64,000 bases of DNA, from assembly GCA_049287025.1 (NCBI GenBank), contig JBAQFA010000009.1, positions 24,802 to 88,801 of the forward strand, written 5' to 3'. The translations under genes were made by a program, and so were the position numbers. Positions 10,375 to 60,825 of this stretch are shown here, one piece after another. Below the pieces are notes generated by a model that saw nothing but the letters and a program-made list of their open reading frames with translations, made no database searches and was not told the DNA's origin. This DNA is from Candidatus Magasanikiibacteriota bacterium. GTDB lineage: Bacteria; Patescibacteriota; Patescibacteriia; Magasanikbacterales; UBA922. Every line of letters begins with the position of its first letter. The stretch's first letter is position 1.

Positions 10375-12363
10375 ATGATTACGACATTGCTCGTACTTTT
10401 GCCAGCCTTGGCTGCCATACTTTATGGTGGAATTTTAATTGGCTGGATCAACAAACAGCCGGCCGGTTCAGAAAGAATGCAGGCCATTGCTAAGGCTATC
10501 CAAGAAGGCGCCAAAGCTTATCTCGGCAGACAATACAAGACTATTGCCATGGTGGCCGTAGTAGTATTTGTTTTGCTTTGGATTTTCTTAGGATTCAAAA
10601 CCGGTTTAGGTTTTGTGGTTGGGGCAACTTTTTCGGGAATTGCTGGTTATCTTGGTATGACTATTTCCGTCAAAGCCAATGTAAGGACAGCCGAAGCAGC
10701 CAAAAAAGGTTTTAAAGAAGCTTTGGACGTAGCCGTAAAAGGTGGTTCAATTACCGGCTTGTTAGTCGTGGGTTTGGGTTTGTTTGGAGTAGGAGCATTT
10801 TATTTAATTTTCAAAGATACTAATTCTTTAATTGGTTTAGCTTTTGGTGGTTCTCTAATTTCTATTTTTGCTCGTATTGGTGGCGGTATTTTTACCAAAG
10901 CCGCTGATGTTGGCGCTGACTTGGTCGGTAAAGTAGAAAAAGGTATTCCTGAAGATGATCCTCGCAATCCAGCGGTGATTGCTGATAATGTTGGCGACAA
11001 CGTCGGTGATTGTGCAGGTATGGCTGCTGACTTATTTGAAACTTATGCTGTGACAGCTGTAGCTGCTATGGTGCTTGGTGCCCTTACTTTTAAAGGTAAT
11101 GAAGAAGCAATTATTTTCCCATTAATCTTGGGTGGAATTTCTATTATTGGTTCAATCATCGGTACATTCTTTATTAGATTAGGCAAGACAAAAAATGTCA
11201 TGAATGCGCTTTATAAGGGTTTAGTTGTGTCGGGAGTTTTATCAATGATTGGTTTTTATTTTGCTAGTACAGTTTATAGTAAATATTTAAATTTAACAGT
11301 TAGTCAATTATTCTGGAGCGGTTTTATTGGTTTAGTTTTAACTGGTCTTATGGTTTGGATTACAGAGTATTATACCTCTACCAAATATGGTCCAGTAAAA
11401 AGTATTGCCAAAGCTTCTGAGACTGGTCATGGTACCAATGTGATTGCTGGTTTGGCTGTATCCATGAAAGCGACTGCTTTGCCAGTTCTATTCATTGCGG
11501 CTGCTATGCTTGGAGCTTATAGTTTGGCTGGTCTCTATGGTGTAGCTATTGCGGCTATGGCCATGTTGTCTATGACAGGAATTGTAGTGACAATTGATGC
11601 CTATGGTCCAATTACTGACAATGCTGGTGGTATTGCGGAAATGGCTGAGCTCGGTGATGAAGTGAGAGCAGTCACTGATCCATTAGATGCCGTTGGAAAT
11701 ACTACCAAAGCTGTGACAAAAGGTTATGCGATTGCCTCAGCTGCTCTGGCCGCTCTAGTTTTATTTGCCGATTACACTCACAAATTGGCTGAGAATGGTA
11801 TTTCTACAGTTTTTAGAATTGATGATCCAAAAGTTTTGGTTGGTTTGTTTATTGGTGGCTTACTGCCATATTTATTTGGTTCATTTTTAATGGAATCAGT
11901 TGGCAAGGTGGCGGGTAAAGTAGTAGAAGAAGTTCGTCGCCAGTTCAAAGAAATTGCGGGAATAATGGAAGGCAATGCCAAACCAGATTATGCCAAGTGT
12001 GTGGACATCGTAACCAAAGGAGCAATCGGTCAAATGGTTTTACCAGCTTTGATTCCAATAGTAGCACCGATTTTAGTTGGCCTAATTTTAGGACCAGCCG
12101 CTCTTGGTGGTTTATTGGTAGGTACAATCGTGACTGGTTTGTTTGTCGCAATTTCCATGACAGCGGGTGGTGGTGCTTGGGACAATGCCAAAAAATATAT
12201 TGAAAATGGTAATTACGGTGGCAAAGGATCTTTTGCTCACCAAGCGGCTGTTACAGGTGACACAGTTGGTGATCCATACAAAGATACTGCTGGTCCAGCC
12301 ATTAATCCGATGATTAAGGTGGCGAATATAGTTGCATTGTTGATTGTGGGGTTGTTGAAATAG
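10375..12363 (+). CDS. hppA: Membrane-bound H+/Na+-translocating pyrophosphatase
   Basis: 662 aa and polytopic. Diagnostic motifs [19 protein letters not shown] and [19 protein letters not shown] are present. Confidence 0.9.
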
Positions 12364-23932: not shown

Positions 23933-26299
23933 TTATTTTTCTAAGACGGGGTGTTGGCCAAACTGACCACGTAGAGCCGAGACTATTTGGCCAGTATAAT
24001 CTGGATTTTTCTGAGATTGCTTTCTAAATTTGAGTGATTCTTCAATTACTTTGGTCTTTATTTTCATGGCCTTGGCAGTTTTAATGGTCCACTCGCCTTC
24101 TCCAGAATGAGATACTTTACCACTAATTTTTTCTAAATTAGTACCGTAAGTATGAAAGGCTTCATGGAGCCAACCAACCAGACGGGATTCAATTACACTA
24201 CCCTCATTATATATGTCAGCAATGCGGTGTAGATCTAGTTTATAATCAGACTTTTTTAGAACATTAAATCCCTCGCCAATGGCTTGCATCATGCCATACT
24301 CAATTCCATTGTGAATCATTTTTACAAAGTGGCCAGCACCAGCGCCAGAAAAAAACTGATAACCATTCACTTGAGACATGTCTTTAAAAATTGGTTCACA
24401 ATGTTCAAATAATTTTTTCTCCCCGCCGATCATAATGCAGGCGCCATTTCTCGCTCCACCTGGACCACCCGATACCCCAGCATCGAGAAATTTAATACCC
24501 AGCTTTTTTAATTTATTGGCTCGAACAGTCGTATCTTTAAAATATGAATTACCGCCGTCAATAATGATGTCGCCTTTATCTAATTTTTTTACTATTCCTT
24601 CTTTACCAAACAAAGTCTCATCAATTGGTTTGCCATTGGGAAGCATGAGCCAGATAATGCGTGGGCTAGGTAATTTTTTTATCATGTCTTCTAATGAATA
24701 TACCGCGTTCAAATTTTCTTTGGCCATTTGTCTGGTCACTTCAGCGGTGCGATTATAACCAACTACATACCAACCCTTGTCAATTAATCTTCTGGCAAGA
24801 TTGCCACCCATTTTTCCTAAACCAATAATACCAATGCGTTTATTTAGTTTATGTTTTTCTTCTTCTAGAAAATTTTTCGCAGTTTTCGTAATTTCAAAAG
24901 TATCTGGTTTGTAAGTATGGAGTGGAGTTAAATTATTTTTCCAAGCATTAATAATTGGATCAACCACACGCCACATTTGAGCAATTTCGGCATTTCTCAT
25001 AAACCAAGTTTGATTACCAGCAATAGTGTCATGGAGTAATTTGGCGTATTCTTCTACATAGGGCAATTTGGTTTTATTTTTATGCAACATAAAAACAAAT
25101 TCTCGTTTTTCCAATTGCATATCAAAACCAGGTTTTCTTTGCCAAAATTGAATTTTTATTTCTTGCGTGGGGTGAAGTTTAAAAATTATTTTATTTTGCA
25201 CTGGACCAGCCGGTGGGCAAATGCAGGGTTCTGGGTGGCGGAAAGTGACGACAATTTCTTTTTTCACTTGTCCCATCCGTTTGCCACTTTCAATTGTAAT
25301 GGGTACGCCAGTCCAACGCGGTGAATCAAGTTCGGTCTGCCAACGGAAATATGTTTCCACATTAGAATTTTTATTTACCCCAGTAATATTTTTATAACCA
25401 TCATATTGGGCGCGGAAAGTTTTGGTTTTTATATCTTGCAAGCTAGGTTTAATTAATTGTTTCAAAACTTCTGCCCGAGCATTGCGCACTTCTTTGTCAG
25501 TATAGTTAATTGGATGCTCCATAGTTAAGAGCGCGAGAATAGACAGCAAATGGTTTTGTCCGACATCACGCAAAGCCCCGACACTTTCATAAAACGATCC
25601 TCTGGTTTCTACTCCAATTTCCTCCCACAGTTTCATACTAATTCTTTCAATATGCTTGTTGTTCCAAGCGTTTTCAAATAAGCCATTAGAAAAACGGAAA
25701 TTTAATATTCCCTGAACCATTTCTTTACCAAAATAGTGATCAATTCTATAAATTTGTTCACGTTTAAAAACTGATAAAGTTTTTTCTAATTCTTTGGCAG
25801 AGGCACCATCATCACCAAACGGTTTTTCTACAATCACTCTAGCCCAACCAGTACTGTCATCACAGGGCAGATTTAATTTGGTTTCTTTCAATCCCTTGGC
25901 AATCGGTTTGATCATGGCTGGTGGAACAGCTAAGTAATACAATTTGTTAGCACAAATCCCCCATTGATCCTGAATATTTTGAATGTGGCTTTTTAATTCA
26001 GTATAATCTTGCAATTGGGAAAAATCGCCTTGTTCATAATGAAAGAGTTTTAAAAATTTTTCAATTGGTTGTCGGGTTTTAACAAATTCTTTTTCTTTTA
26101 AAATATTAAAAACATGGGTTCTAAATTCTTCATCACTCATTGCTCGGCGGGCAAATCCTAAGACATCAAAATGAACTGGAAGTTTTTTTTGTTTGTATAA
26201 AAAATATAATGAAGGGACAATTTTTTTTGTCATAAGGTCGCCAGTGGCACCAAAAACAGTAAAAATTGTTGGAACATTATCAAAGTATGGTTGTTTCAT
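23933..26299 (-). CDS. Fused glucose-6-phosphate dehydrogenase (N-terminal) and short-type 6-phosphogluconate dehydrogenase (C-terminal)
   Basis: The N-terminal ~480 aa carry G6PD motifs (GATGDL..K, EKPFG, RIDHYFGKE). The C-terminal ~300 aa carry GIIGLGKMGGNLARRL and a GndA-like decarboxylating 6PGDH domain. This is a single uninterrupted 788-aa ORF. Confidence 0.8.
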   Translation of the reverse strand: MKQPYFDNVPTIFTVFGATGDLMTKKIVPSLYFLYKQKKLPVHFDVLGFARRAMSDEEFRTHVFNILKEKEFVKTRQPIEKFLKLFHYEQGDFSQLQDYTELKSHIQNIQDQWGICANKLYYLAVPPAMIKPIAKGLKETKLNLPCDDSTGWARVIVEKPFGDDGASAKELEKTLSVFKREQIYRIDHYFGKEMVQGILNFRFSNGLFENAWNNKHIERISMKLWEEIGVETRGSFYESVGALRDVGQNHLLSILALLTMEHPINYTDKEVRNARAEVLKQLIKPSLQDIKTKTFRAQYDGYKNITGVNKNSNVETYFRWQTELDSPRWTGVPITIESGKRMGQVKKEIVVTFRHPEPCICPPAGPVQNKIIFKLHPTQEIKIQFWQRKPGFDMQLEKREFVFMLHKNKTKLPYVEEYAKLLHDTIAGNQTWFMRNAEIAQMWRVVDPIINAWKNNLTPLHTYKPDTFEITKTAKNFLEEEKHKLNKRIGIIGLGKMGGNLARRLIDKGWYVVGYNRTAEVTRQMAKENLNAVYSLEDMIKKLPSPRIIWLMLPNGKPIDETLFGKEGIVKKLDKGDIIIDGGNSYFKDTTVRANKLKKLGIKFLDAGVSGGPGGARNGACIMIGGEKKLFEHCEPIFKDMSQVNGYQFFSGAGAGHFVKMIHNGIEYGMMQAIGEGFNVLKKSDYKLDLHRIADIYNEGSVIESRLVGWLHEAFHTYGTNLEKISGKVSHSGEGEWTIKTAKAMKIKTKVIEESLKFRKQSQKNPDYTGQIVSALRGQFGQHPVLEK

Positions 26300-53547: not shown

Positions 53548-53628
53548 ACAATATACAAAATACAAATAATAATATTAAAAAATATTTTGTATTTTGTTAC
53601 GTGTATATTGTATTTTGTTTTTATGGAC
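53548..53628. repeat. Palindromic AT-rich element, copy 2, upstream of the kef start
   Basis: ATATACAAAATACAAATA ... GTGTATATTGTATTTTGTTTTTATGGAC. Confidence 0.55.
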
Positions 53629-55317
53629 AACATTTTTCTCCAAATTTCAGTCTTAATGGGAATCACAGTTAGTATTGCACTCATAATGCGTCTGCTTCGT
53701 CAGCCATTAATTGTCGCCTATATTATAGCTGGTCTAGTAGCTGGACCATTATTTTTAAATTTGCTTGGCCACAGTGAAGAATTTTTTAATACCTTTGCCA
53801 AGTTTGGGATTGTTCTCTTGTTGTTTTTGGTAGGTTTGAGTTTGAATTTTACTTATATAAAAAGAATGGGAAAGAAAGTTGTAATTGGTGGTGGTGTTCA
53901 ATTTATTTTGACTTCAATCATTGGAGTAGGGGTGGTAATGTTGTTAGGTTTTAGTTTTCAATCATCATTATTTTTATCAATCGCAGTCGCTTTTTCTAGC
54001 ACGATTATTGTAACCAAATTGTTGGCTGACAAAAAAGATTTGGAAACAGTTTATGGTCGCTATACTATTGGCGTGTTGTTGGTCCAAGACATTATTGCGG
54101 TTTTGTTAATGGTATTTTTTAATACTCCTGATGTCCAAGGCGATATTTGGTATAAGACTTTATTTATTATTTTGAGTAAGGGCTTTATTTTGTTGAGCGT
54201 GGTTTATATCATGGCAAAATTTTTATTACCAAAATTAATGGATCGAGTGGCGCGTAATGGTGAGTTATTATTTATTTTTACGATTGCTTGGTGTTTTGGG
54301 GTGGCGAGTATAGTTTATCTGGGTGGATTTAGTATAGAGATTGGAGCGATTATTGCGGGTATTTCTCTTGGCACTTCACCATATCAACCAGAGATTAGCA
54401 GTCGACTTCGTCCTTTGCGAGATTTTTTCTTAGTATTATTTTTTATTGTGCTTGGTAGCGAATTACAATTTAGTGATATTGGTCGGGCAATTTTTCCAGC
54501 GATTATTTTATCAATGTTTATTTTAATTATTGATCCGATTATTTTATTTTTTGCCATGAGGCGGATTAATTATACTAGACGCAATTCTTTTTTGGCCAGT
54601 ATTACGGCGGCTCAGGTAAGTGAGTTTGGATTTATTATAATTTTTACGGCTAGTGGACTAGGTTATTTACAAGGGGTAGAATTGGCAGTATTAACTTTGA
54701 CCGCTCTAATCACGATTATTGTTTCTTCATATCTTATTACTTACAATGAAAAAATTTATCAATGGCTTTTACCATTTTTTATTCTTTTTGGAAAAGATAA
54801 AGCCACTATGCAAGAAGAAGTAAAAGAAACTTACCAAGTATTTGTTTTTGGTTATCATCGGATTGGTTGGAAAGTATGTGAAGCTTTGGCACGTAAAAAA
54901 ATAAAATATGCGGTGATTGATTATAACCCAGACGCGATCACTCGACTCAAACAGCGTAATATTCCAGCTTTTTTTGGTGATGTGGCTGATGTAGAATTTT
55001 TATCAGAATTGCCATTAGAAAAAGCCGATATGATTATTTCTACTATTCCTACAGCCGATGATCAAATGACTATGATAAAACATATAAGAAAGATGACTAA
55101 TAAAACGGTTATTATTGCTAATCTATATTATAATGATCATTTGGATGATTTGTATGAAGCTGGGGCTAATTATGTGATGATGCCCCACCTACTTGGTGGA
55201 CAATGGATAGCCGAAGTTTTGCATAATCATGCTTGGAGCAAATCAACTTTTGAAAAATTAAAAAAAGAACAACGAGAGGAAATGAAGTTGAGATTTACAG
55301 TAGGGGTGCATGAATAG
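53623..55317 (+). CDS. CPA2-family cation:proton antiporter with a C-terminal RCK/TrkA-N domain (Kef-like)
   Basis: It has about 12 TM helices. The RCK segment is VFGYHRIGWKVCEALARKKIKYAVIDYNPDAI. The start is taken at MDNIFLQ. Confidence 0.8.
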   Translation: MDNIFLQISVLMGITVSIALIMRLLRQPLIVAYIIAGLVAGPLFLNLLGHSEEFFNTFAKFGIVLLLFLVGLSLNFTYIKRMGKKVVIGGGVQFILTSIIGVGVVMLLGFSFQSSLFLSIAVAFSSTIIVTKLLADKKDLETVYGRYTIGVLLVQDIIAVLLMVFFNTPDVQGDIWYKTLFIILSKGFILLSVVYIMAKFLLPKLMDRVARNGELLFIFTIAWCFGVASIVYLGGFSIEIGAIIAGISLGTSPYQPEISSRLRPLRDFFLVLFFIVLGSELQFSDIGRAIFPAIILSMFILIIDPIILFFAMRRINYTRRNSFLASITAAQVSEFGFIIIFTASGLGYLQGVELAVLTLTALITIIVSSYLITYNEKIYQWLLPFFILFGKDKATMQEEVKETYQVFVFGYHRIGWKVCEALARKKIKYAVIDYNPDAITRLKQRNIPAFFGDVADVEFLSELPLEKADMIISTIPTADDQMTMIKHIRKMTNKTVIIANLYYNDHLDDLYEAGANYVMMPHLLGGQWIAEVLHNHAWSKSTFEKLKKEQREEMKLRFTVGVHE

Positions 55318-55354
55318 AAAAGTTGTAAAGTTAAAAGTTATAAAGTTTCTAAAG

Positions 55355-55392
55355 TAAAAAAATTACCTCTAAACATAGAGGTAATTTTTTAT
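55355..55392 (+). terminator. Intrinsic terminator after kef
   Basis: AAAAAAATTACCTCTAAACATAGAGGTAATTTTTT. Confidence 0.6.
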
Positions 55393-55578
55393 TGACATTG
55401 TCGACCTGTAGATACTATACTTGAACTATATAATAATGTACTAAATAACTTGGAGTTGGTGACTAAATGGAATACTTCAGTTAAAGATTTTTGCAAACAA
55501 GAGATCAGGACTAACACACTTGCTTTTAGATAAAAAGTGGCTTAAAATAGGGTTATATAATGTTTAATCACTTAAAAT

Positions 55579-55761
55579 ATGAACTCACAAGACACTTATA
55601 GCCAAAAAGACAACCACACAGATGTTGCCGAAACACTACCAAATACTAACAACACACCAAGTGATAACCAACCAACAAACAGCCCAAACCAGCAAGTGGT
55701 GGCAAATGACGGAACTACTGTAACTTTAGGCCAAAATGGCCATTCTCATAAGACCAAATAA
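55579..55761 (+). CDS. Small hypothetical protein rich in Thr/Asn/Gln/Pro
   Basis: 60-aa ORF. Its A/C-rich codon composition is unlike its neighbours. Coding status is uncertain. Confidence 0.25.
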   Translation: MNSQDTYSQKDNHTDVAETLPNTNNTPSDNQPTNSPNQQVVANDGTTVTLGQNGHSHKTK

Positions 55762-55813
55762 CTATAGGGCGATTTTCATTGAACTGTAGTTAATATAATA
55801 ATACTATAGTTCT

Positions 55814-56224
55814 ATGATTGATAATCAAACAAAAGAGAAATTCATCGAATTAAGAGCACAAGGAAAAAGTTATAACACAATCTCTAAAGAGATTGGTGTA
55901 AGCAAACCCACACTTATTCAGTGGAGTAGAGAGTTTGTGGACGAAATTTCCAATCTTAAAGCAATAGAATTTGAAGATTTACAAGAAAAGTATTATATAC
56001 ACAAAAGAAAAAGAATAGAAATTTTTGGCACACAACTGGAAGCCATAAAGCAGGAACTTTCTTCAAGAGATCTAAAAACAATTTCAACTGAAAGGCTTTT
56101 GGATTTATTGGCTAAATTTACGACGGTATTGAAAGCAGAAGAAACAACTATAAACTTTACTACAAAAGTCAGTCCCGTTGATGATTATTTAGATCTATCA
56201 GTTGTAAAAAATTGGATTGGATAA
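55814..56224 (+). CDS. HTH protein, either transposase/terminase-small-subunit-like or a regulator
   Basis: ..GKSYNTISKEIGVSKPTLIQWSRE.. is an HTH_23-like motif. Confidence 0.4.
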   Translation: MIDNQTKEKFIELRAQGKSYNTISKEIGVSKPTLIQWSREFVDEISNLKAIEFEDLQEKYYIHKRKRIEIFGTQLEAIKQELSSRDLKTISTERLLDLLAKFTTVLKAEETTINFTTKVSPVDDYLDLSVVKNWIG

Positions 56225-56341
56225 AATATTACCAAAACTTTACTATTTTTTGACCGAGATATTCAAAGAAAGTATATATTGCTTTTATCTCGTTTTTATG
56301 ATAATATAGCGGTACTAAACATTCAGTAGACTTATAATTTT

Positions 56342-57085
56342 ATGAGTAATAAATATAACAAAAATTTCATTGGAAAGGTTGCTTTTCGTTTAGATTTCTC
56401 CGAAAATGTTGCAATTGGTTCATTGAAAGATCTTCATGAAGAAATAAATGATGTTTTTTCAATAAAAGAAGAAAAAGAGAGTGTGACAGGGTTTGTTCAA
56501 TTAGATTTTAAGAGCGGTGAAATGAGAAATGAAACTGAAAAAATGGCTTCTTGGTTATTTAGCAATACAGAAAAAAATAAAAGAATGGAAATAAATTCGA
56601 GATTTTTGTATTTAGAATATGATAAATACAATGAAAAAACTGAACTATTTGACGATATAAAAAATGTAGTTCAAAAATTCATATCAAAATATAATATAAA
56701 AACTTTTAATCGTATTGGTTTAAGATTTATAAACGAAATAAAGTTACAAGAAAGTGAGCAACTGGATTGGACTAAATATATTGACAAAAACCTAATTGCT
56801 AATCTTATTTTTGTTAAAGATCAAAATAAAAAATTAGCTCGTGCAATGAGTGCCTTAGTTTTCAAAGAAGAAAAAGGTGATATAAATTTTAATTTTGGTA
56901 TTTGGAATAGTGAGTATCCAAACGAGGTTAACAGAAAGGAATTTGTATTAGACTATGATTGTTTTTCAAATTTAGGAATTTCTGATGATGAAGTTTTAGA
57001 ACGCACAGAGCAGTTTCATTCATATATTGAAAAACTATTTGAAGCAAGTATAACGGAAGAATTTAGAGGATTGTTAAATAAATAA
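56342..57085 (+). CDS. Hypothetical protein
   Basis: 247-aa ORF with no recognised motif. Confidence 0.4.
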   Translation: MSNKYNKNFIGKVAFRLDFSENVAIGSLKDLHEEINDVFSIKEEKESVTGFVQLDFKSGEMRNETEKMASWLFSNTEKNKRMEINSRFLYLEYDKYNEKTELFDDIKNVVQKFISKYNIKTFNRIGLRFINEIKLQESEQLDWTKYIDKNLIANLIFVKDQNKKLARAMSALVFKEEKGDINFNFGIWNSEYPNEVNRKEFVLDYDCFSNLGISDDEVLERTEQFHSYIEKLFEASITEEFRGLLNK

Positions 57086-57088
57086 AAT

Positions 57089-57289
57089 ATGAATAATAAT
57101 TACTCGCAACAGTCTGCCCAGACAGCAGGTTCAAATGACTCTGGTTATTTTGCAAAACAAAATAATTCTACAGTAACGAGTGATTATATAACTAAAACCA
57201 AGGAAACAGCTGAATTTGTAGTTGTTAATGGTTCAGGTTATTCACAAAGACAGGCAAGAATTGTGAAAAGTAAATATGTTAGAAAGTAA
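57089..57289 (+). CDS. Small hypothetical protein
   Basis: 66 aa, tightly spaced with neighbours on both sides. Confidence 0.3.
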   Translation: MNNNYSQQSAQTAGSNDSGYFAKQNNSTVTSDYITKTKETAEFVVVNGSGYSQRQARIVKSKYVRK

Positions 57290-57854
57290 TATTAAATCTT
57301 TTTATAAAAAACACAGCAAGGAGCGATTTTGCCAAGGTGATATTTTGAGAGATGTAAAAGTTTCAATTGACATTCCAATCGAATGGCAACAATCAGAGGG
57401 TAATACCACAGATTATGATTTACCGTATTGTGTTATTATGACACAAGATTGTGACTTGGATAGAGATTTCGAAAGTAAAAAAGGTGAAAAACTCACAAAC
57501 AACGACAAACATTTACCGACAATTTTAGTTTGTCCAGCATATCGTGATCTTCCTTTTTATGAGGGTAAACATCTTGTAGGCTGGAAAATGCAGGAATACA
57601 AAGGCAAGGCATTAGAAAAAATACAAAAAAACGATGAAATAAACAGGTGCCACTTTCTAAAAGGTGACAGTACCTTACAAATACCAAATCTTGTAATTGA
57701 CTTCAAACATTTCTACACATTGCCAACAAGTATACTTTATGAACAATACAACGATATTTATTTAGCAACTATAAATGAATTATTCAGAGAGAGGCTATCA
57801 CAACGTTTCGCTAATTATTTATCGAGATTTGGTTTGCCAGAATTAAAATCATAG
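57276..57854 (+). CDS. Hypothetical protein
   Basis: 192 aa. It overlaps the upstream ORF, which suggests a three-gene operon. Confidence 0.4.
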   Translation: MLESNIKSFYKKHSKERFCQGDILRDVKVSIDIPIEWQQSEGNTTDYDLPYCVIMTQDCDLDRDFESKKGEKLTNNDKHLPTILVCPAYRDLPFYEGKHLVGWKMQEYKGKALEKIQKNDEINRCHFLKGDSTLQIPNLVIDFKHFYTLPTSILYEQYNDIYLATINELFRERLSQRFANYLSRFGLPELKS

Positions 57855-57910
57855 ATAAAGATTTTATAAAATACGATAATATATAACCAGCTGATAAAGC
57901 TGGTTTATTA

Positions 57911-58100
57911 TTGCTAAATAAACATCAGTATGGTAAAATCATAATGCTAACCCACAACTTAATATACACAAGAATGAATGAGGTTCTCCTCATCTTTTGT
58001 CCGTTTGCGACCAGAGATGGGGTAGCAACCTTCCACAAACGGGCATTCTTGTGTTCGCAAAGTGGGTTAGCAGGTATGCTATCCCTTTTTTGTTTTTAAT
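57911..58100 (+). ncRNA. Candidate small RNA inside the integrative element
   Basis: A TTGCTA-17-TAAAAT promoter spans 57911-57945. The downstream region is structured (CCGTTTG..CAAACGG) and ends in GTATGCTATCCCTTTTTTGTTTTT. The only ORF here (57911-58099) looks spurious. Confidence 0.3.
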
Positions 58101-58228
58101 TTAATAAAAGATTACACAGTCTTTTACAATTTTACACAAAAATTGGACAAAATTGGACAAAAATCATTCAAGTTCATACACAAATTACGGGTTTCACATT
58201 AACCCGACTAATTATTAACATAGATTAT

Positions 58229-58744
58229 ATGAAAAAATGTCAGTTTTGTGCTGAAGAAGTGCAAGATGAAGCCATAGTATGTAAACACTGTGGCAAAGAA
58301 TTAAATAAGCAGGCTGTAAAAAAGAAGGAGTATAATTGGACATTTCGCAAAATTAGTTGTGCGGTTATATTAGTCCCAGTAGTCTTGATTTTTGTAATTA
58401 CCATGGCGGGCGGATGCAATAATTCTAAATCAACCCCAACAGATAGTGCATTATCAAACGTGGGCGTTGGACAGGAAGGTTTCTTACGTACGAGTGATAC
58501 TGGTGCGGATGTTTTGTTAGCTACTTCAGAAAAATCATTTGATGATTTAATTAATGCATCGGTTGCAAAAGATACAATTGGTATGGCACAAATTGTCCTT
58601 AATGGTAATGCTTTTTACATCCCTTATAACACAAAAGTATTAGTGATCGAGTCTTCTTTTGCTAAAAGAAAAGTACGTATTTTGGAAGGTGAGAAAGTAG
58701 GCGAAACTGGTTGGATACCCTATGAGTTTGTTGTTGCAAAATAA
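58229..58744 (+). CDS. Zinc-ribbon membrane protein, hypothetical
   Basis: N-terminal CxxC-16-CxxC, one TM helix, and a C-terminal beta domain. Confidence 0.45.
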   Translation: MKKCQFCAEEVQDEAIVCKHCGKELNKQAVKKKEYNWTFRKISCAVILVPVVLIFVITMAGGCNNSKSTPTDSALSNVGVGQEGFLRTSDTGADVLLATSEKSFDDLINASVAKDTIGMAQIVLNGNAFYIPYNTKVLVIESSFAKRKVRILEGEKVGETGWIPYEFVVAK

Positions 58745-58804
58745 TGGAAAACAAACAAAAAACCTGCTATATTAATAGTAGGTTTTTTTATTAAAATAAA
58801 TATT

Positions 58805-60442
58805 ATGACAACCACACAAGATTTGTACAAAATGATCGGAACTGCACAACAGCAGGAAGAAGATAAGGATGACGTTTCAAAATATCGATACGTTATTTAT
58901 GCTCGAAAATCTACAGATGATAAAGAAAAACAAATCAGATCATTAGGTGATCAAATTAAAGAATGTAAGGATTATGCTGAAAGAAATGGACTTAGATGTT
59001 TACCGAAACCAATAACGGAGTCAGAGTCTGCCAAGGAACCAGACATAAGGCCAGAGTTTAAGAAATTAATTGATGACATTAAAAAAGCTAAATATGATGG
59101 TATTTTGGCTTGGCATCCAGACCGTTTGGCCAGAAATATGAAGGATGCTGGAGAGATAATAGATCTGTTGGATAAAAAGATAGTGAAAGACCTAAAATTC
59201 GTAACATTTACGTTTGAGAACAATACAATGGGTAAAATGTTGTTAGGGATGGCTTTCGTGCTGTCTAAGCAGTATTCTGACGCTTTAAGTGATAATGTAA
59301 AACGAGGAACAAGTAGAAGTATTGAAGAAGGTAGATGGTTGAACAAAGCTAAACATGGTTATTATAAAGATCGTAATCAAATACTGCATCCAGATGGTAG
59401 ATTTTTTAATCTGATTGAGAATATTTTTAGGATGAGAATAGATAATAAAAGTTTGGATGATATAGCTGATTATTTGAATGAAAATAGATATTGTTGTGCC
59501 CCACCTTCTAAGAATGAAGCTGACCGTAGCCCATTTCAAATGACCAAACAGATCGTCTCTAAAATTGTGAGAGACCCATTTTACACTGGCATTCTTAAGT
59601 ATGGAGAAAACAAGGTTGATTTAACTGAAATTTATGACTTTACTCCTGCTGTAAGTGTGGATGATTTTCTGAAAATAAACAACTTTTCTGATATTGAAAA
59701 AGCTCTAAAATTAACTGGAAAAATTTATAAAGACAACGCAATCAAGGCAGATTTGATGAGAGGAATGATAATTTGTGGTGAATGTGATGGAAGTATGACA
59801 TCTGGAATTACTCCTAAAAAAACAAAAAATGGTAAAACTAATTATTTTTATTACAGATGTGATAACCCTGTTTGTAAAAATAAAGGTAAGTCTATAAGGG
59901 CAAAAGTAATTATTGACTTTGCCTGTCAATATTTGGAAAAAAACAAATTTACCTCTCATTCTATATATGGGCATTATATCCAAGAAATGAAAAAAGTTGT
60001 AATGGAAAAAGAGAGGTCTCTCATACAAAAAATTCGTTCATTGACGGAGACCAGAGTACACAAAAAAAATCAATTTGAAAAGACAAAAAAATCTCTTATA
60101 CAAGAGACTGACGAAGACATCAAGGGTTTTTTTAAGGAAGATTTGAAACAATTAGAAAAGGACATCAATAATTTAGAAACCGAAATAGATGAATTGAAAG
60201 ATGAGAAAGAAAGAAATAATAGCGTCACGCTGACTTACTCAGAATACCTTGAACTGTTCAATAATTTAGCTGAGCGTATTAAAAAAATAGGCGTTATGGA
60301 AGACCTAAATTTTATAATGAAAAAAATCTTCTTGAACTTTACTATAAAAGAGGGAAAAGTGGCTCTATATACACTAAACTCCCCATTCGGGGAGTTCGTG
60401 AAAGACCGTATTGTCTTGACATGTCGGGGTGAAAGGACTTGA
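58805..60442 (+). CDS. Large serine recombinase with resolvase N-terminus, recombinase domain, zinc ribbon and coiled coil
   Basis: YVIYARKSTDDKEKQIRSLGDQI places the catalytic Ser in a resolvase-type N-terminal domain. The central recombinase domain has a Cys cluster (CGECDG..C..C). The C-terminal coiled coil is typical of phiC31/TnpX-type integrases. Confidence 0.85.
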   Translation: MTTTQDLYKMIGTAQQQEEDKDDVSKYRYVIYARKSTDDKEKQIRSLGDQIKECKDYAERNGLRCLPKPITESESAKEPDIRPEFKKLIDDIKKAKYDGILAWHPDRLARNMKDAGEIIDLLDKKIVKDLKFVTFTFENNTMGKMLLGMAFVLSKQYSDALSDNVKRGTSRSIEEGRWLNKAKHGYYKDRNQILHPDGRFFNLIENIFRMRIDNKSLDDIADYLNENRYCCAPPSKNEADRSPFQMTKQIVSKIVRDPFYTGILKYGENKVDLTEIYDFTPAVSVDDFLKINNFSDIEKALKLTGKIYKDNAIKADLMRGMIICGECDGSMTSGITPKKTKNGKTNYFYYRCDNPVCKNKGKSIRAKVIIDFACQYLEKNKFTSHSIYGHYIQEMKKVVMEKERSLIQKIRSLTETRVHKKNQFEKTKKSLIQETDEDIKGFFKEDLKQLEKDINNLETEIDELKDEKERNNSVTLTYSEYLELFNNLAERIKKIGVMEDLNFIMKKIFLNFTIKEGKVALYTLNSPFGEFVKDRIVLTCRGERT

Positions 60443-60497
60443 ACCTTCGGCCTCCTGGTCCCAAACCAGGCGCTCTAGCCAACTGAGCTACACCCCG
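60424..60497 (-). tRNA. tRNA-Pro(TGG)
   Basis: Acceptor CGGGGTG/CACCCCG, anticodon loop TTTGGGA, T-loop GGTTCAAGTCC. Its 3' end overlaps the recombinase stop region. Confidence 0.75.
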
Positions 60498-60542
60498 TTA
60501 AAGTTATAAAGTTGAAAGTTTTAAAGTTCAAAAAAATAACTT

Positions 60543-60616
60543 GGTGCCGAGGGCCAGGATCGAACTGGCGACACGTGGATTTTCAGTCCACTGCTCTACC
60601 ACTGAGCTACCTCGGC
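60543..60616 (-). tRNA. tRNA-Phe(GAA) with CCA encoded
   Basis: GCCGAGGTAGCTCAGTGGTAGAGC.., anticodon loop CTGAAAA, ..GTTCGATCCTGGCCCTCGGCACCA. Confidence 0.8.
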
Positions 60617-60624
60617 TTGTTTTG

Positions 60625-60698
60625 TGGACCTGAGGAGATTCGAACTCCTGACCCCCTGCTTGCAAAGCAGGTGCTCTAGCCAGCTGAGCTACAGGCCC
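60625..60698 (-). tRNA. tRNA-Ala(TGC)
   Basis: GGGCCTGTAGCTCAGCTGG.., anticodon loop TTTGCAA, G3:U70, discriminator A. Confidence 0.8.
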
Positions 60699-60825
60699 TT
60701 TTTTAAAAACCCAAAACAAAAGTGGGGATATTATAGCAACTAGTGATATTTTTGTCAATCTTATTCTCATTTATCAGTTTTTATGGTAAAATATAAACAA
60801 TTATTAATAAATTATAAAAATAATT

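Follow-up and report, generated by a model that had tools for sequence, protein, structure and literature searches.

A small element with a large serine recombinase inserted at the 3' end of tRNA-Pro in a Candidatus Magasanikiibacteriota genome

The stretch of DNA analysed here, referred to as the window, comprises 64,000 nucleotides (positions 24,802 to 88,801) of contig JBAQFA010000009.1 in the genome assembly GCA_049287025.1 of a Candidatus Magasanikiibacteriota bacterium, a member of the Patescibacteria or candidate phyla radiation (CPR). The window contains an element of about 5 kb, which encodes a large serine recombinase (LSR) and is inserted between kef and a cluster of three tRNA genes (Table 1). 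An identical copy of the locus is found in GCA_049304355.1. The block consists of seven open reading frames of the same orientation: two small core genes, a cassette of three cargo genes, a membrane protein gene and, at the right end, the LSR gene, which runs into the 3' end of tRNA-Pro. Loci of relatives are cited by L-numbers, the labels that they received in the scans with kef, the LSR and the cargo genes.

Table 1. Positions of genes, att site parts and other features at the kef/tRNA-Pro locus, in coordinates of the window
Feature	Positions	Strand	Basis or remark
kef, Kef-type K+/H+ antiporter	53623-55317		Adjoins the block of seven + strand open reading frames
AAAGTT spacer array 3' of the kef stop	55319-55355	+	Chromosomal; neither element nor att site
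Bidirectional intrinsic-terminator hairpin	55356-55390	.	A7-TTACCTCT-AAACAT-AGAGGTAA-T6, read from the sequence
Inner B arm of attL, ATTGACATTG	55391-55400	+	Chromosomal; common to L007
Sigma-70-like promoter, TTGACA-N18-TATACT	55392-55421	+	Consensus scan, 11/12; spans attL, directed into the element genes; putative function
Left TGTCG core copy, attL crossover region	55399-55403	+	Identical to 60422-60426 and in register with the cores of other family members
Integrated element, 5,023 bp	55401-60423	+	L007 homology break, L029 empty site, attP/attB reconstruction
P' arm of attL	55404-55430	+	ACTTGAACT at 55419-55427
60-aa core gene	55579-55761	+	tblastn; recurs 5' of the LSR in the family
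136-aa helix-turn-helix (HTH) core gene	55814-56224	+	HTH_23, E 1.5e-4; phrog_4102 terS, E 6e-5
Cargo gene 1, TIGR04255 family, 247 aa	56342-57085	+	TIGR04255, E 4.8e-28
Cargo gene 2, 66 aa	57089-57289	+	14-nt overlap with cargo gene 3; candidate antitoxin
Cargo gene 3, 192 aa, MazF/CcdB/ToxN fold	57276-57854	+	Candidate toxin
Folded non-coding segment ending in a T-run	57960-58100	+	3' of the cassette
171-aa zinc-ribbon membrane protein, variable accessory gene	58229-58744	+	Zn_ribbon_3, E 7e-5
LSR, 545 aa	58805-60442	+	Pfam domains, invariant residues, TP901-1 alignment
P arm of attR, within the 3' end of the LSR coding sequence	60380-60421	+	attP reconstruction
Right TGTCG core copy	60422-60426	+	Antisense of tRNA C71, G72, A73 plus two trailer nucleotides
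tRNA-Pro(UGG), intact	60423-60497 (ARAGORN) or 60424-60497 (Rfam)	-	71.1 bits, full length
Second AAAGTT array, the tRNA-Phe/tRNA-Pro spacer	60500-60527	+	Chromosomal
tRNA-Phe	60542-60616	-	ARAGORN
tRNA-Ala	60624-60698	-	ARAGORN

The 545-aa protein has the domain composition of an LSR, as had been proposed in an earlier reading of the sequence alone. The Resolvase (PF00239, E 9.5e-25), Recombinase (PF07508, E 1.8e-10) and Zn_ribbon_recom (PF13408, E 6.3e-7; 30.1 bits at a cut-off of 25.3) domains all score above the Pfam cut-offs, and residues ~390-480 give weak matches of the coiled-coil type. The sequence YARKST aligns with YTRVST of the TP901-1 integrase, S36 falling opposite the catalytic serine region of the latter; identity to solved integrases is confined to the catalytic domain. 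In an alignment with 27 homologues (46-57% identity) the residues R34, S36, D106, R107 and R110 are invariant, and so are the four zinc-ligand cysteines C324, C327, C352 and C357. Judged by these residues the recombinase looks functional, and it may be active at present.

The overlap of the LSR open reading frame, stop codon included, with tRNA-Pro amounts to 20 nt if the tRNA end is taken from ARAGORN and to 19 nt, the length given in the sequence-only reading, if it is taken from Rfam. The stop codon, TGA at 60440-60442, is within the T-loop of the tRNA, and the last six codons together with the stop come from the tRNA side. All three tRNAs are full-length by their Rfam scores, and the 3' end of tRNA-Pro, a test of which had been advised in the same reading, is intact.

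The evidence for an insertion comes from the comparison with relatives. A scan for Kef relatives returned 69 loci (L007-L075), mostly from Magasanikbacteria, and in 30 of them tRNA-Pro(UGG) lies at most 4.5 kb from kef, usually within an Ala-Phe-Pro cluster. In these kef-linked loci a terminator hairpin normally follows directly after tRNA-Pro, and neither the LSR nor any other gene of the block occurs in any of the 30. The gene order of L029 is the same as that of the window (kef(+), Pro(-), Phe(-), Ala(-), MgtC(+)), and the gap between kef and tRNA-Pro is 55 nt, taken up by a bidirectional terminator, as against 5,105 nt in the window. Other empty sites are present in L022, L011 and further loci. 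The hairpin to the right of kef in the window is the original terminator common to kef and the tRNA operon and represents the outer B arm of attB; a hairpin is found at the terminator position in the empty sites L029 and L011 as well.

The closest relative is L007, the Kef protein of which is 90% identical to that of the window. L007 follows the window through the kef stop, the AAAGTT array, the terminator hairpin and ATTGACATTGTCG; the two sequences are identical up to position 55403 and unrelated from there on, which puts the left boundary of the insert after this position. Judged from its junction, L007 appears to hold a different member of the same family of elements at the same site. The presence/absence polymorphism at the otherwise syntenic kef/tRNA-Pro site is clear. 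Of the two findings that the sequence-only reading had named as contrary evidence, a gene order with the recombinase in all relatives and an inactivated recombinase, neither applies, as the catalytic S36 is intact. The sequence-only reading had suggested a small integrated element with an LSR against tRNA-Pro, and had predicted that a site with kef directly next to tRNA-Pro would exist in relatives; both ideas are borne out by the L029 empty site and the L007 break. The extent that it gave, 55330-60700, was too wide on both sides.

The element of the window is one of many in CPR bacteria. When metagenomes were scanned with the LSR alignment, 80 loci were obtained, with recombinases of 39-61% identity; 62 of these loci continue for at least 125 nt beyond the codon of the conserved residue F528. 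In 54 of the 62 an antisense tRNA gene follows, its 3' end starting 26-66 nt past the F528 codon (median 33). The overlapped tRNAs comprise 17 species and are distributed as Pro (22), Glu (9), Val (6), Leu (6), Ala (5), Arg (2) and Asp, Gly, Ile and Lys (1 each). The C-termini of the LSR homologues are translated antisense tRNA 3' ends, for instance SRGAGN before the stop codon, GRGERTRTSDL and GTRTRDL. About two dozen elements have both ends defined, and their length is 2.6-6.7 kb.

The other genes of the block differ in how often they recur in the family. The 60-aa gene is found 5' of the LSR in 16 of the 80 loci by tblastn, and homologues of the HTH gene (37-55% identity) in 15. The 171-aa gene is present in one to three related loci only, and the three cargo genes never recur 5' of the LSR among the related loci. 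The HTH_23-like and zinc-ribbon reading frames noticed in the sequence-only reading are indeed there, both with matches under the Pfam cut-off; in the 171-aa protein the zinc ribbon is N-terminal and is followed by a hydrophobic stretch. The HTH protein is a candidate regulator, excision factor or small-terminase-like protein, and the 60-aa protein is a candidate directionality factor. No member of the LSR clade was found among the 2.9 million viral contigs of IMG/VR, and a search with PHROGs for capsid, tail, terminase and lysis genes returned only the integrase and the weak terS-like match of the HTH protein. As for the traits of phage satellites of the PICI/PICMI kind, the element has an integrase and the HTH protein with its weak terS profile match, and no primase, replication or capsid-interference gene was detected. 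A description of this LSR clade in CPR bacteria was not found in the literature.

The junctions of the element are of the attL/attR type. At attL the sequence ...GGTAATTTTTTATTGACATTGTCG is followed by ACCTGTAGATACTATACTTGAACT..., at attR ...GTATTGTCTTGACATGTCG is followed by GGGTGAAAGGACTTGAACC..., and TGTCG is the only sequence common to the two sites. Its last four letters, GTCG, are antisense to the nucleotide after the tRNA and then to A73, G72 and C71. The length of 5,023 bp holds for any crossover point within the core, and the limits given in Table 1 hold for a crossover at GT. Reconstruction of the parental sites gives an attP junction in which ...GACCGTATTGTCTTGACATG is followed by TCGACCTGTAGATACTATACTTGAACT..., and an attB junction in which ...GAGGTAATTTTTTATTGACATTG is followed by TCGGGGTGAAAGGACTTGAACC... 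In 7 of 11 elements the reconstructed attB has a terminator hairpin immediately beside the tRNA, as natural empty sites do, and this resemblance is an independent validation of the junction calls.

For comparison between elements, positions were numbered along the + strand with the first base of the antisense CCA as 0; A73 is then position 3, and positions 20-23 are GAAC, the antisense of G53-T54-Psi55-C56 of the T-loop. At nine loci a direct repeat of 8-13 nt of the tRNA tip (about -6 to +10) is situated 2.6-4.9 kb 5', and GAAC stands at exactly +25 in all nine. Other in-register matches of at least 8 nt are without GAAC or belong to real tRNAs with GAAC at +21. GAAC at +25 is also found in L140, at the L007 junction and in the window, where the motif occupies 55423-55426 (position 0 being 55398), whereas in the tRNA, as part of the B' arm, it is at +20 (60441-60444). 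A weight-matrix scan yielded 13 further left ends with cores of 5-8 nt, and those of tRNA-Pro elements show a (T/A)GTCG core as in the window. The shared core measures 5 nt in the window element and 5-13 nt in its relatives.

When the in-register identity runs of the elements are overlaid, positions 1-3 are common to all, and every attL/attR pair that was examined, like almost all tRNA flanks, has GT at positions 2-3. This constancy suggests a crossover at A73/N74, and the exchanged dinucleotide is most likely 5'-GT-3' of the + strand. In the LI integrase the motif bound by the zinc-ribbon domain is 5 bp nearer the centre in attB than in attP, and this difference underlies the discrimination between the two sites (Rutherford et al. 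2013, PMC3783163). The +5 offset of GAAC, observed for the P'/B' pair only, matches the LI rule and is strong sequence-level support for a canonical serine-integrase reaction between attP and attB. It also accounts for the assignment of ACTTGAAC at 55419 to an attP arm, as this sequence is out of the tRNA register by +5. A displaced 3' fragment of tRNA-Pro at the left end was considered and rejected; nothing beyond 4 nt (GTCG) is there. The zinc-ribbon domain would be the part of the protein that reads GAAC, and such a mechanism, based on the T-loop and the zinc-ribbon domain, is favoured with moderate confidence.

The following course of events is proposed. The LSR would have recombined the attP of the element, where the final codons of the LSR gene meet the element's left end, with a chromosomal attB made up of the 3' half of tRNA-Pro(UGG) as the B' arm and the flank with the tRNA terminator as the B arm. 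The B' arm would offer the universal GAAC of the T-loop 20 nt from position 0, and the P' arm a copy, GAAC(T), at 25 nt. A crossover at A73 and the next nucleotide would leave the tRNA whole and separate it from its terminator. The C-terminus of the integrase would be swapped in the process: as integrated, the gene encodes 545 aa, with CRGERT as the C-terminus before a stop supplied by the T-loop, and the excised form would encode 583 aa. The promoter of the tRNA operon, found at 60758-60730 with 12/12 consensus positions in the promoter scan, should, once the terminator is lost, transcribe antisense into the integrase gene.

The sequence TTGACA stands just left of the core at both junctions (within 55392-55421 and at 60416-60421), 1 nt out of register. 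Together with TATACT at 55416-55421 it makes up a near-consensus promoter that spans attL and also the predicted attP, and that other members of the family lack. The longer TTGACAT had been considered as an extension of the core and was rejected on account of the 1-nt shift between attL and attR. It may instead be the -35 box of a promoter that spans the site in both forms: attP would carry a nearly identical arrangement with a spacer of N17, compared with N18 in attL, and a promoter present in both forms may explain the out-of-register repeat.

Attachment-like junctions of another kind are seen in four loci without a tRNA, L104, L116, L118 and L121, where an attP-like junction with a P'-type arm and GAAC at +25 comes directly after the LSR. 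The tandem array in L140 (about 500-560) generates junctions of this kind too, and for this reason those of the four loci are no proof of free circles. Tandem integration is unexpected under canonical attP x attB chemistry.

The three cargo genes form a cassette of their own. The order of a TIGR04255 protein (247-252 aa), a small protein (55-66 aa) and a third protein (187-224 aa), with overlapping genes, is kept in every context examined, namely Sulfuriflexus (L159), a Methanosarcinaceae archaeon, one contig that is CPR-like and two others from metagenomes; copies were recorded at L156, L157, L159, L160, L161 and L162. The cassette is typically found on islands flanked by integrases, and its frequent neighbours are tyrosine integrases, restriction-modification genes, a methyltransferase/helicase pair, a Fic protein and RHS/HNH genes. 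The 192-aa protein has no Pfam domain, and 556 homologues of it are detectable in bacteria and archaea. Its fold is the SH3-like barrel of MazF/CcdB (MazF/CcdB/ToxN). The structure model of the TIGR04255 protein (pLDDT 83) is a duplicated alpha/beta sandwich with generic matches only. Profile searches of the PDB with both cargo proteins gave nothing significant, searches of the cargo with Pfam, PADLOC and PHROGs nothing useful except TIGR04255 itself, and no mention of TIGR04255 was found in the literature.

Compared with MazF, Kid and CcdB or ToxN and AbiQ, the 192-aa protein is about 80 aa longer and gives no match at the level of sequence. Its cassette, unlike MazF, always includes a third, larger protein of the TIGR04255 family, and its conserved motifs QGD, QDCDL, DFKH and FRExLSQRF differ from those of MazF. 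The gene order makes the 66-aa protein a candidate antitoxin. Fold, gene order and genomic company taken together suggest that the cassette is most likely a three-component module of the toxin-antitoxin or abortive-infection type, and it has the look of a toxin-antitoxin or defence-type system not yet catalogued. The cassette would probably stabilise the element or protect the host. On the defence or accessory function that the sequence-only reading had considered for these genes the results give a partial answer: PADLOC has no match, but one of the proteins has the MazF/ToxN toxin fold.

The segment 3' of the cassette is GC-richer and strongly folded (minimum free energy -53.3 kcal/mol, z -6.1). 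Its identity to the segment at the same position in L156 (8731-8832), the closest cassette, is 82% over 102 nt, compared with 72% for the coding DNA, and the differences include apparent compensatory changes. No Rfam family corresponds to it. It was considered as a possible part of the cassette, but L156 is the only cassette that shares the segment, which is absent from L157-L164.

Several observations weigh against the interpretation of the block as a mobile element integrated by its own recombinase and carrying a toxin-like module. Exact-protein look-ups in the source samples found nothing besides the integrated form and contigs that break off in the tRNA cluster, and no empty site or circle; terminal overlaps that would mark circular contigs were absent among the 80 related LSR loci. 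Since the shared core has only 5 nt, the junctions are placed mainly by means of L007 and L029 and of the pattern seen across the family. The dyad symmetry of the reconstructed attP is too weak to fix the crossover (best centre 2.0-4.5, 0.35 complementary at a background of about 0.25), no clear mirror motif GTTC is seen in the P arm, and the B arms are not conserved among elements. The element differs little from its host in GC content (31.5% and 36.1%). Pfam and PHROGs found no replication, conjugation/transfer or packaging genes among its proteins, and no directionality factor was recognised among its genes. On the side of the cargo, PADLOC-DB 2.0 gave no meaningful match for any of the seven proteins, and Pfam, NCBIfam and PADLOC none for the 192-aa and 66-aa proteins, a MazF match at the sequence level included. 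With all this taken into account, an LSR-integrated element with the boundaries 55401-60423 is still considered highly probable.

The alternative that survives best, though it is improbable, is a decayed prophage or remnant, in which the LSR and the neighbouring reading frames would be the immobile leftovers of a larger element. The lack of detectable replication, transfer and capsid genes, the weak small-terminase matches of the HTH protein and the circular form not being seen would all be in keeping with decay. An LSR that is full-length and has kept all catalytic and zinc-binding residues speaks against it, and so do the relatives with both ends defined, which are uniformly small and have the same core genes and intact att-like arms. 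The absence of the clade from the viral contigs of IMG/VR and the occurrence of two different family members at one site, in the window and in L007, argue in the same direction.

Considerably less probable is a recombinase that has been domesticated by the host, as in the XisF, SpoIVCA or invertase type, and that serves to rearrange the tRNA locus, for instance by flipping the cluster. XisF is the best NCBIfam match of the LSR (E 1.4e-26, far under the cut-off), and the orientation of the kef-adjacent Ala-Phe-Pro cluster does vary: it has the direction of kef in 24 relatives and the opposite direction in 6 others and in the window, as a comparison of L011 (2114-2498) with L029 (11751-12234) illustrates. 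The mixed orientations indicate at least one flip of the cluster within the lineage, to which neither a recombinase nor an inverted repeat could be linked. Inverted repeats flanking the cluster were not found; the LSR gene is missing from all 30 syntenic relatives, those with an inverted cluster included, and travels with variable cargo beside 17 different tRNAs; and the junctions are not of the inversion type.

A serine transposon or insertion sequence of the IS607, TnpX or TndX type, with loose target choice and next to a tRNA by chance, is most improbable: the catalytic domain has a weak IS607 match (E 1.3e-9, under the cut-off), but the protein has the LSR layout of Recombinase domain, zinc ribbon and coiled coil and not the IS607 layout of an HTH plus a small catalytic domain, 54 of 62 relatives are in the same register at the tRNA 3' end, and the window contains a single copy. 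Scarcely more can be said for an element that extends from one AAAGTT array (55329-55366) to the other (60498-60540) and carries its own tRNA-Pro, the arrays serving as attL and attR as the sequence-only reading had supposed. These arrays are the only two in the window and align over 43 nt at 72%. Relatives without this element have them too, and at matching positions: L011 and L040 between tRNA-Phe and tRNA-Pro, L023 and L007 just behind the kef stop. The arrays were rejected as att sites for this reason. Moreover, L007 matches the window for 50 nt beyond the left array, long direct repeats are not generated by serine integrases, and in 30 relatives tRNA-Pro, which would wrongly fall inside the element, has its syntenic place in the Ala-Phe-Pro cluster; the junctions are between 55403 and 55404 on the left and at about 60422-60426 on the right. 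Tandem (N)AAAGTT(N) arrays recur around kef and tRNA-Pro in several Magasanikbacteria (L011 2385-2413, L040 12043-12111, L023 5120-5150, L019 9931-9958), and by its distribution the array appears to be a spacer motif typical of the lineage.

An integrative element with a serine integrase, as preferred here, is of a known kind, and serine recombinases adjacent to tRNA genes have already been reported in Thermotogota and Prochlorococcus. The integrases of the A118/LI, TP901-1, Bxb1 and phiC31 type are likewise three-domain proteins with a coiled coil and use short att sites with a very short core and a 5-bp shift of motifs between attP and attB (PMC3783163). In contrast to the LI/phiC31 type, the window element is not a phage but a ~5-kb host element, targets the extreme 3' end of a tRNA, has the universal T-loop as its outer attB motif and has an attP that overlaps the stop region of the integrase, the tail of which is swapped. 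The group 1 proviruses of Thermotogota also have a serine recombinase beside a tRNA, with related recombinases at different tRNAs; unlike the window element they are full-size proviruses with structural genes in another phylum, and the accessible part of their description mentions neither an att architecture nor an overlap with the integrase. Among the tycheposons and tRNA-island elements of Prochlorococcus, 27 of 937 carry an LSR and 97% use tyrosine recombinases (Hackl et al., bioRxiv 10.1101/2020.12.28.424599). They resemble the LSR family in being small, located at tRNA genes and arranged in tandem arrays, and in having variable cargo. They leave partial tRNA repeats of ~40 nt and many have replication genes, whereas the window element has a 5-nt core and no replication module.

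In islands of the Islander type, which have tyrosine integrases, the integrase also abuts the 3' end of a tRNA, occupancy can be tandem and the tRNA is functional after integration (PMC4383910). Their recombinase is unrelated, the tRNA is split and restored from island DNA, and a displaced fragment is left; with the crossover of the window element at 73/74 there would be nothing to restore. The window element does not belong to this type, since its recombinase is a serine recombinase and its left end has no tRNA fragment longer than 4 nt. SCCmec, with CcrAB or CcrC, is an LSR-driven cassette of 20-60 kb, neither phage nor conjugative, at the 3' end of rlmH (orfX), and its recombinases are often paired. 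The window element is similar in that an LSR drives its integration at the extreme 3' end of a housekeeping gene that is conserved, and in the variable cargo of its family; the NCBIfam CcrB and CcrC scores of its LSR are far under the cut-offs. The large LSR survey by Durrant et al. makes no mention of tRNA. What appears to be new is the combination of very small non-viral elements, an attP in the stop region of the integrase, a crossover at the discriminator position and the T-loop as a shifted outer motif over many tRNAs.

The family is of interest for the evolution of att specificity, as it includes a natural series of retargeted integrases at 17 tRNA species. Throughout the clade one half of a tRNA gene serves as attB, with the invariant T-loop as the outer recognition motif. 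Large DNA is inserted into genomes chiefly by means of serine integrases, which in nature mostly target unique sites in protein-coding or intergenic sequence. Landing pads for the present clade would be available already in almost any organism. A self-integrating element of 3-5 kb with defined att sites is in addition a possible design for integration vectors in CPR bacteria, where genetic tools are scarce, and very small elements that neither replicate nor conjugate may be a common vehicle for toxin-like cassettes in reduced genomes.

It is tentatively proposed that minimal 'tRNA-tail' cassettes may make up a large undescribed family in CPR bacteria; their integrase would read the T-loop (G53-C56) through its zinc-ribbon domain, and they would shuttle defence or addiction modules. 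If this is true, such an element would contain little beyond its integrase: one or two small genes for control and one cargo module that can be exchanged, which in the window is the so far uncharacterised three-gene MazF-fold cassette known from bacteria and archaea. A recombinase domain would read the acceptor end, and small changes would retarget the integrase from one tRNA to another. The elements would spread among organisms with tiny genomes by natural transformation or by hitch-hiking on phages, and the integrases would have landing pads that are conserved in all cellular life.

Some minor features were noticed at the locus and in its relatives. The sequence TTGGACAAA occurs seven times in the window (at 77, 18266, 33369, 44060, 48321, 58143 and 58153), compared with 1.5 expected occurrences, and two of the copies form a tandem pair 5' of the zinc-ribbon gene; similar copies are present in the insert of L007. 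The repeats were rejected as element-specific because the motif is enriched throughout the window, and TTGGACAAA may be a promoter or operator motif of the host organism. In L029 the region between tRNA-Phe and tRNA-Ala (12040-12140) contains an insert that is GC-rich and hairpin-like and, after it, a second copy (22 nt) of the 5' end of tRNA-Phe with its flank, and looks like a small insertion with target duplication. Between kef and tRNA-Pro(-), 0.8-3.2 kb of DNA without an LSR is found in L042 (11680-14916), L014 and L035 (gaps of ~820 nt), which could represent other insertions, or remnants of them, at the same hotspot.

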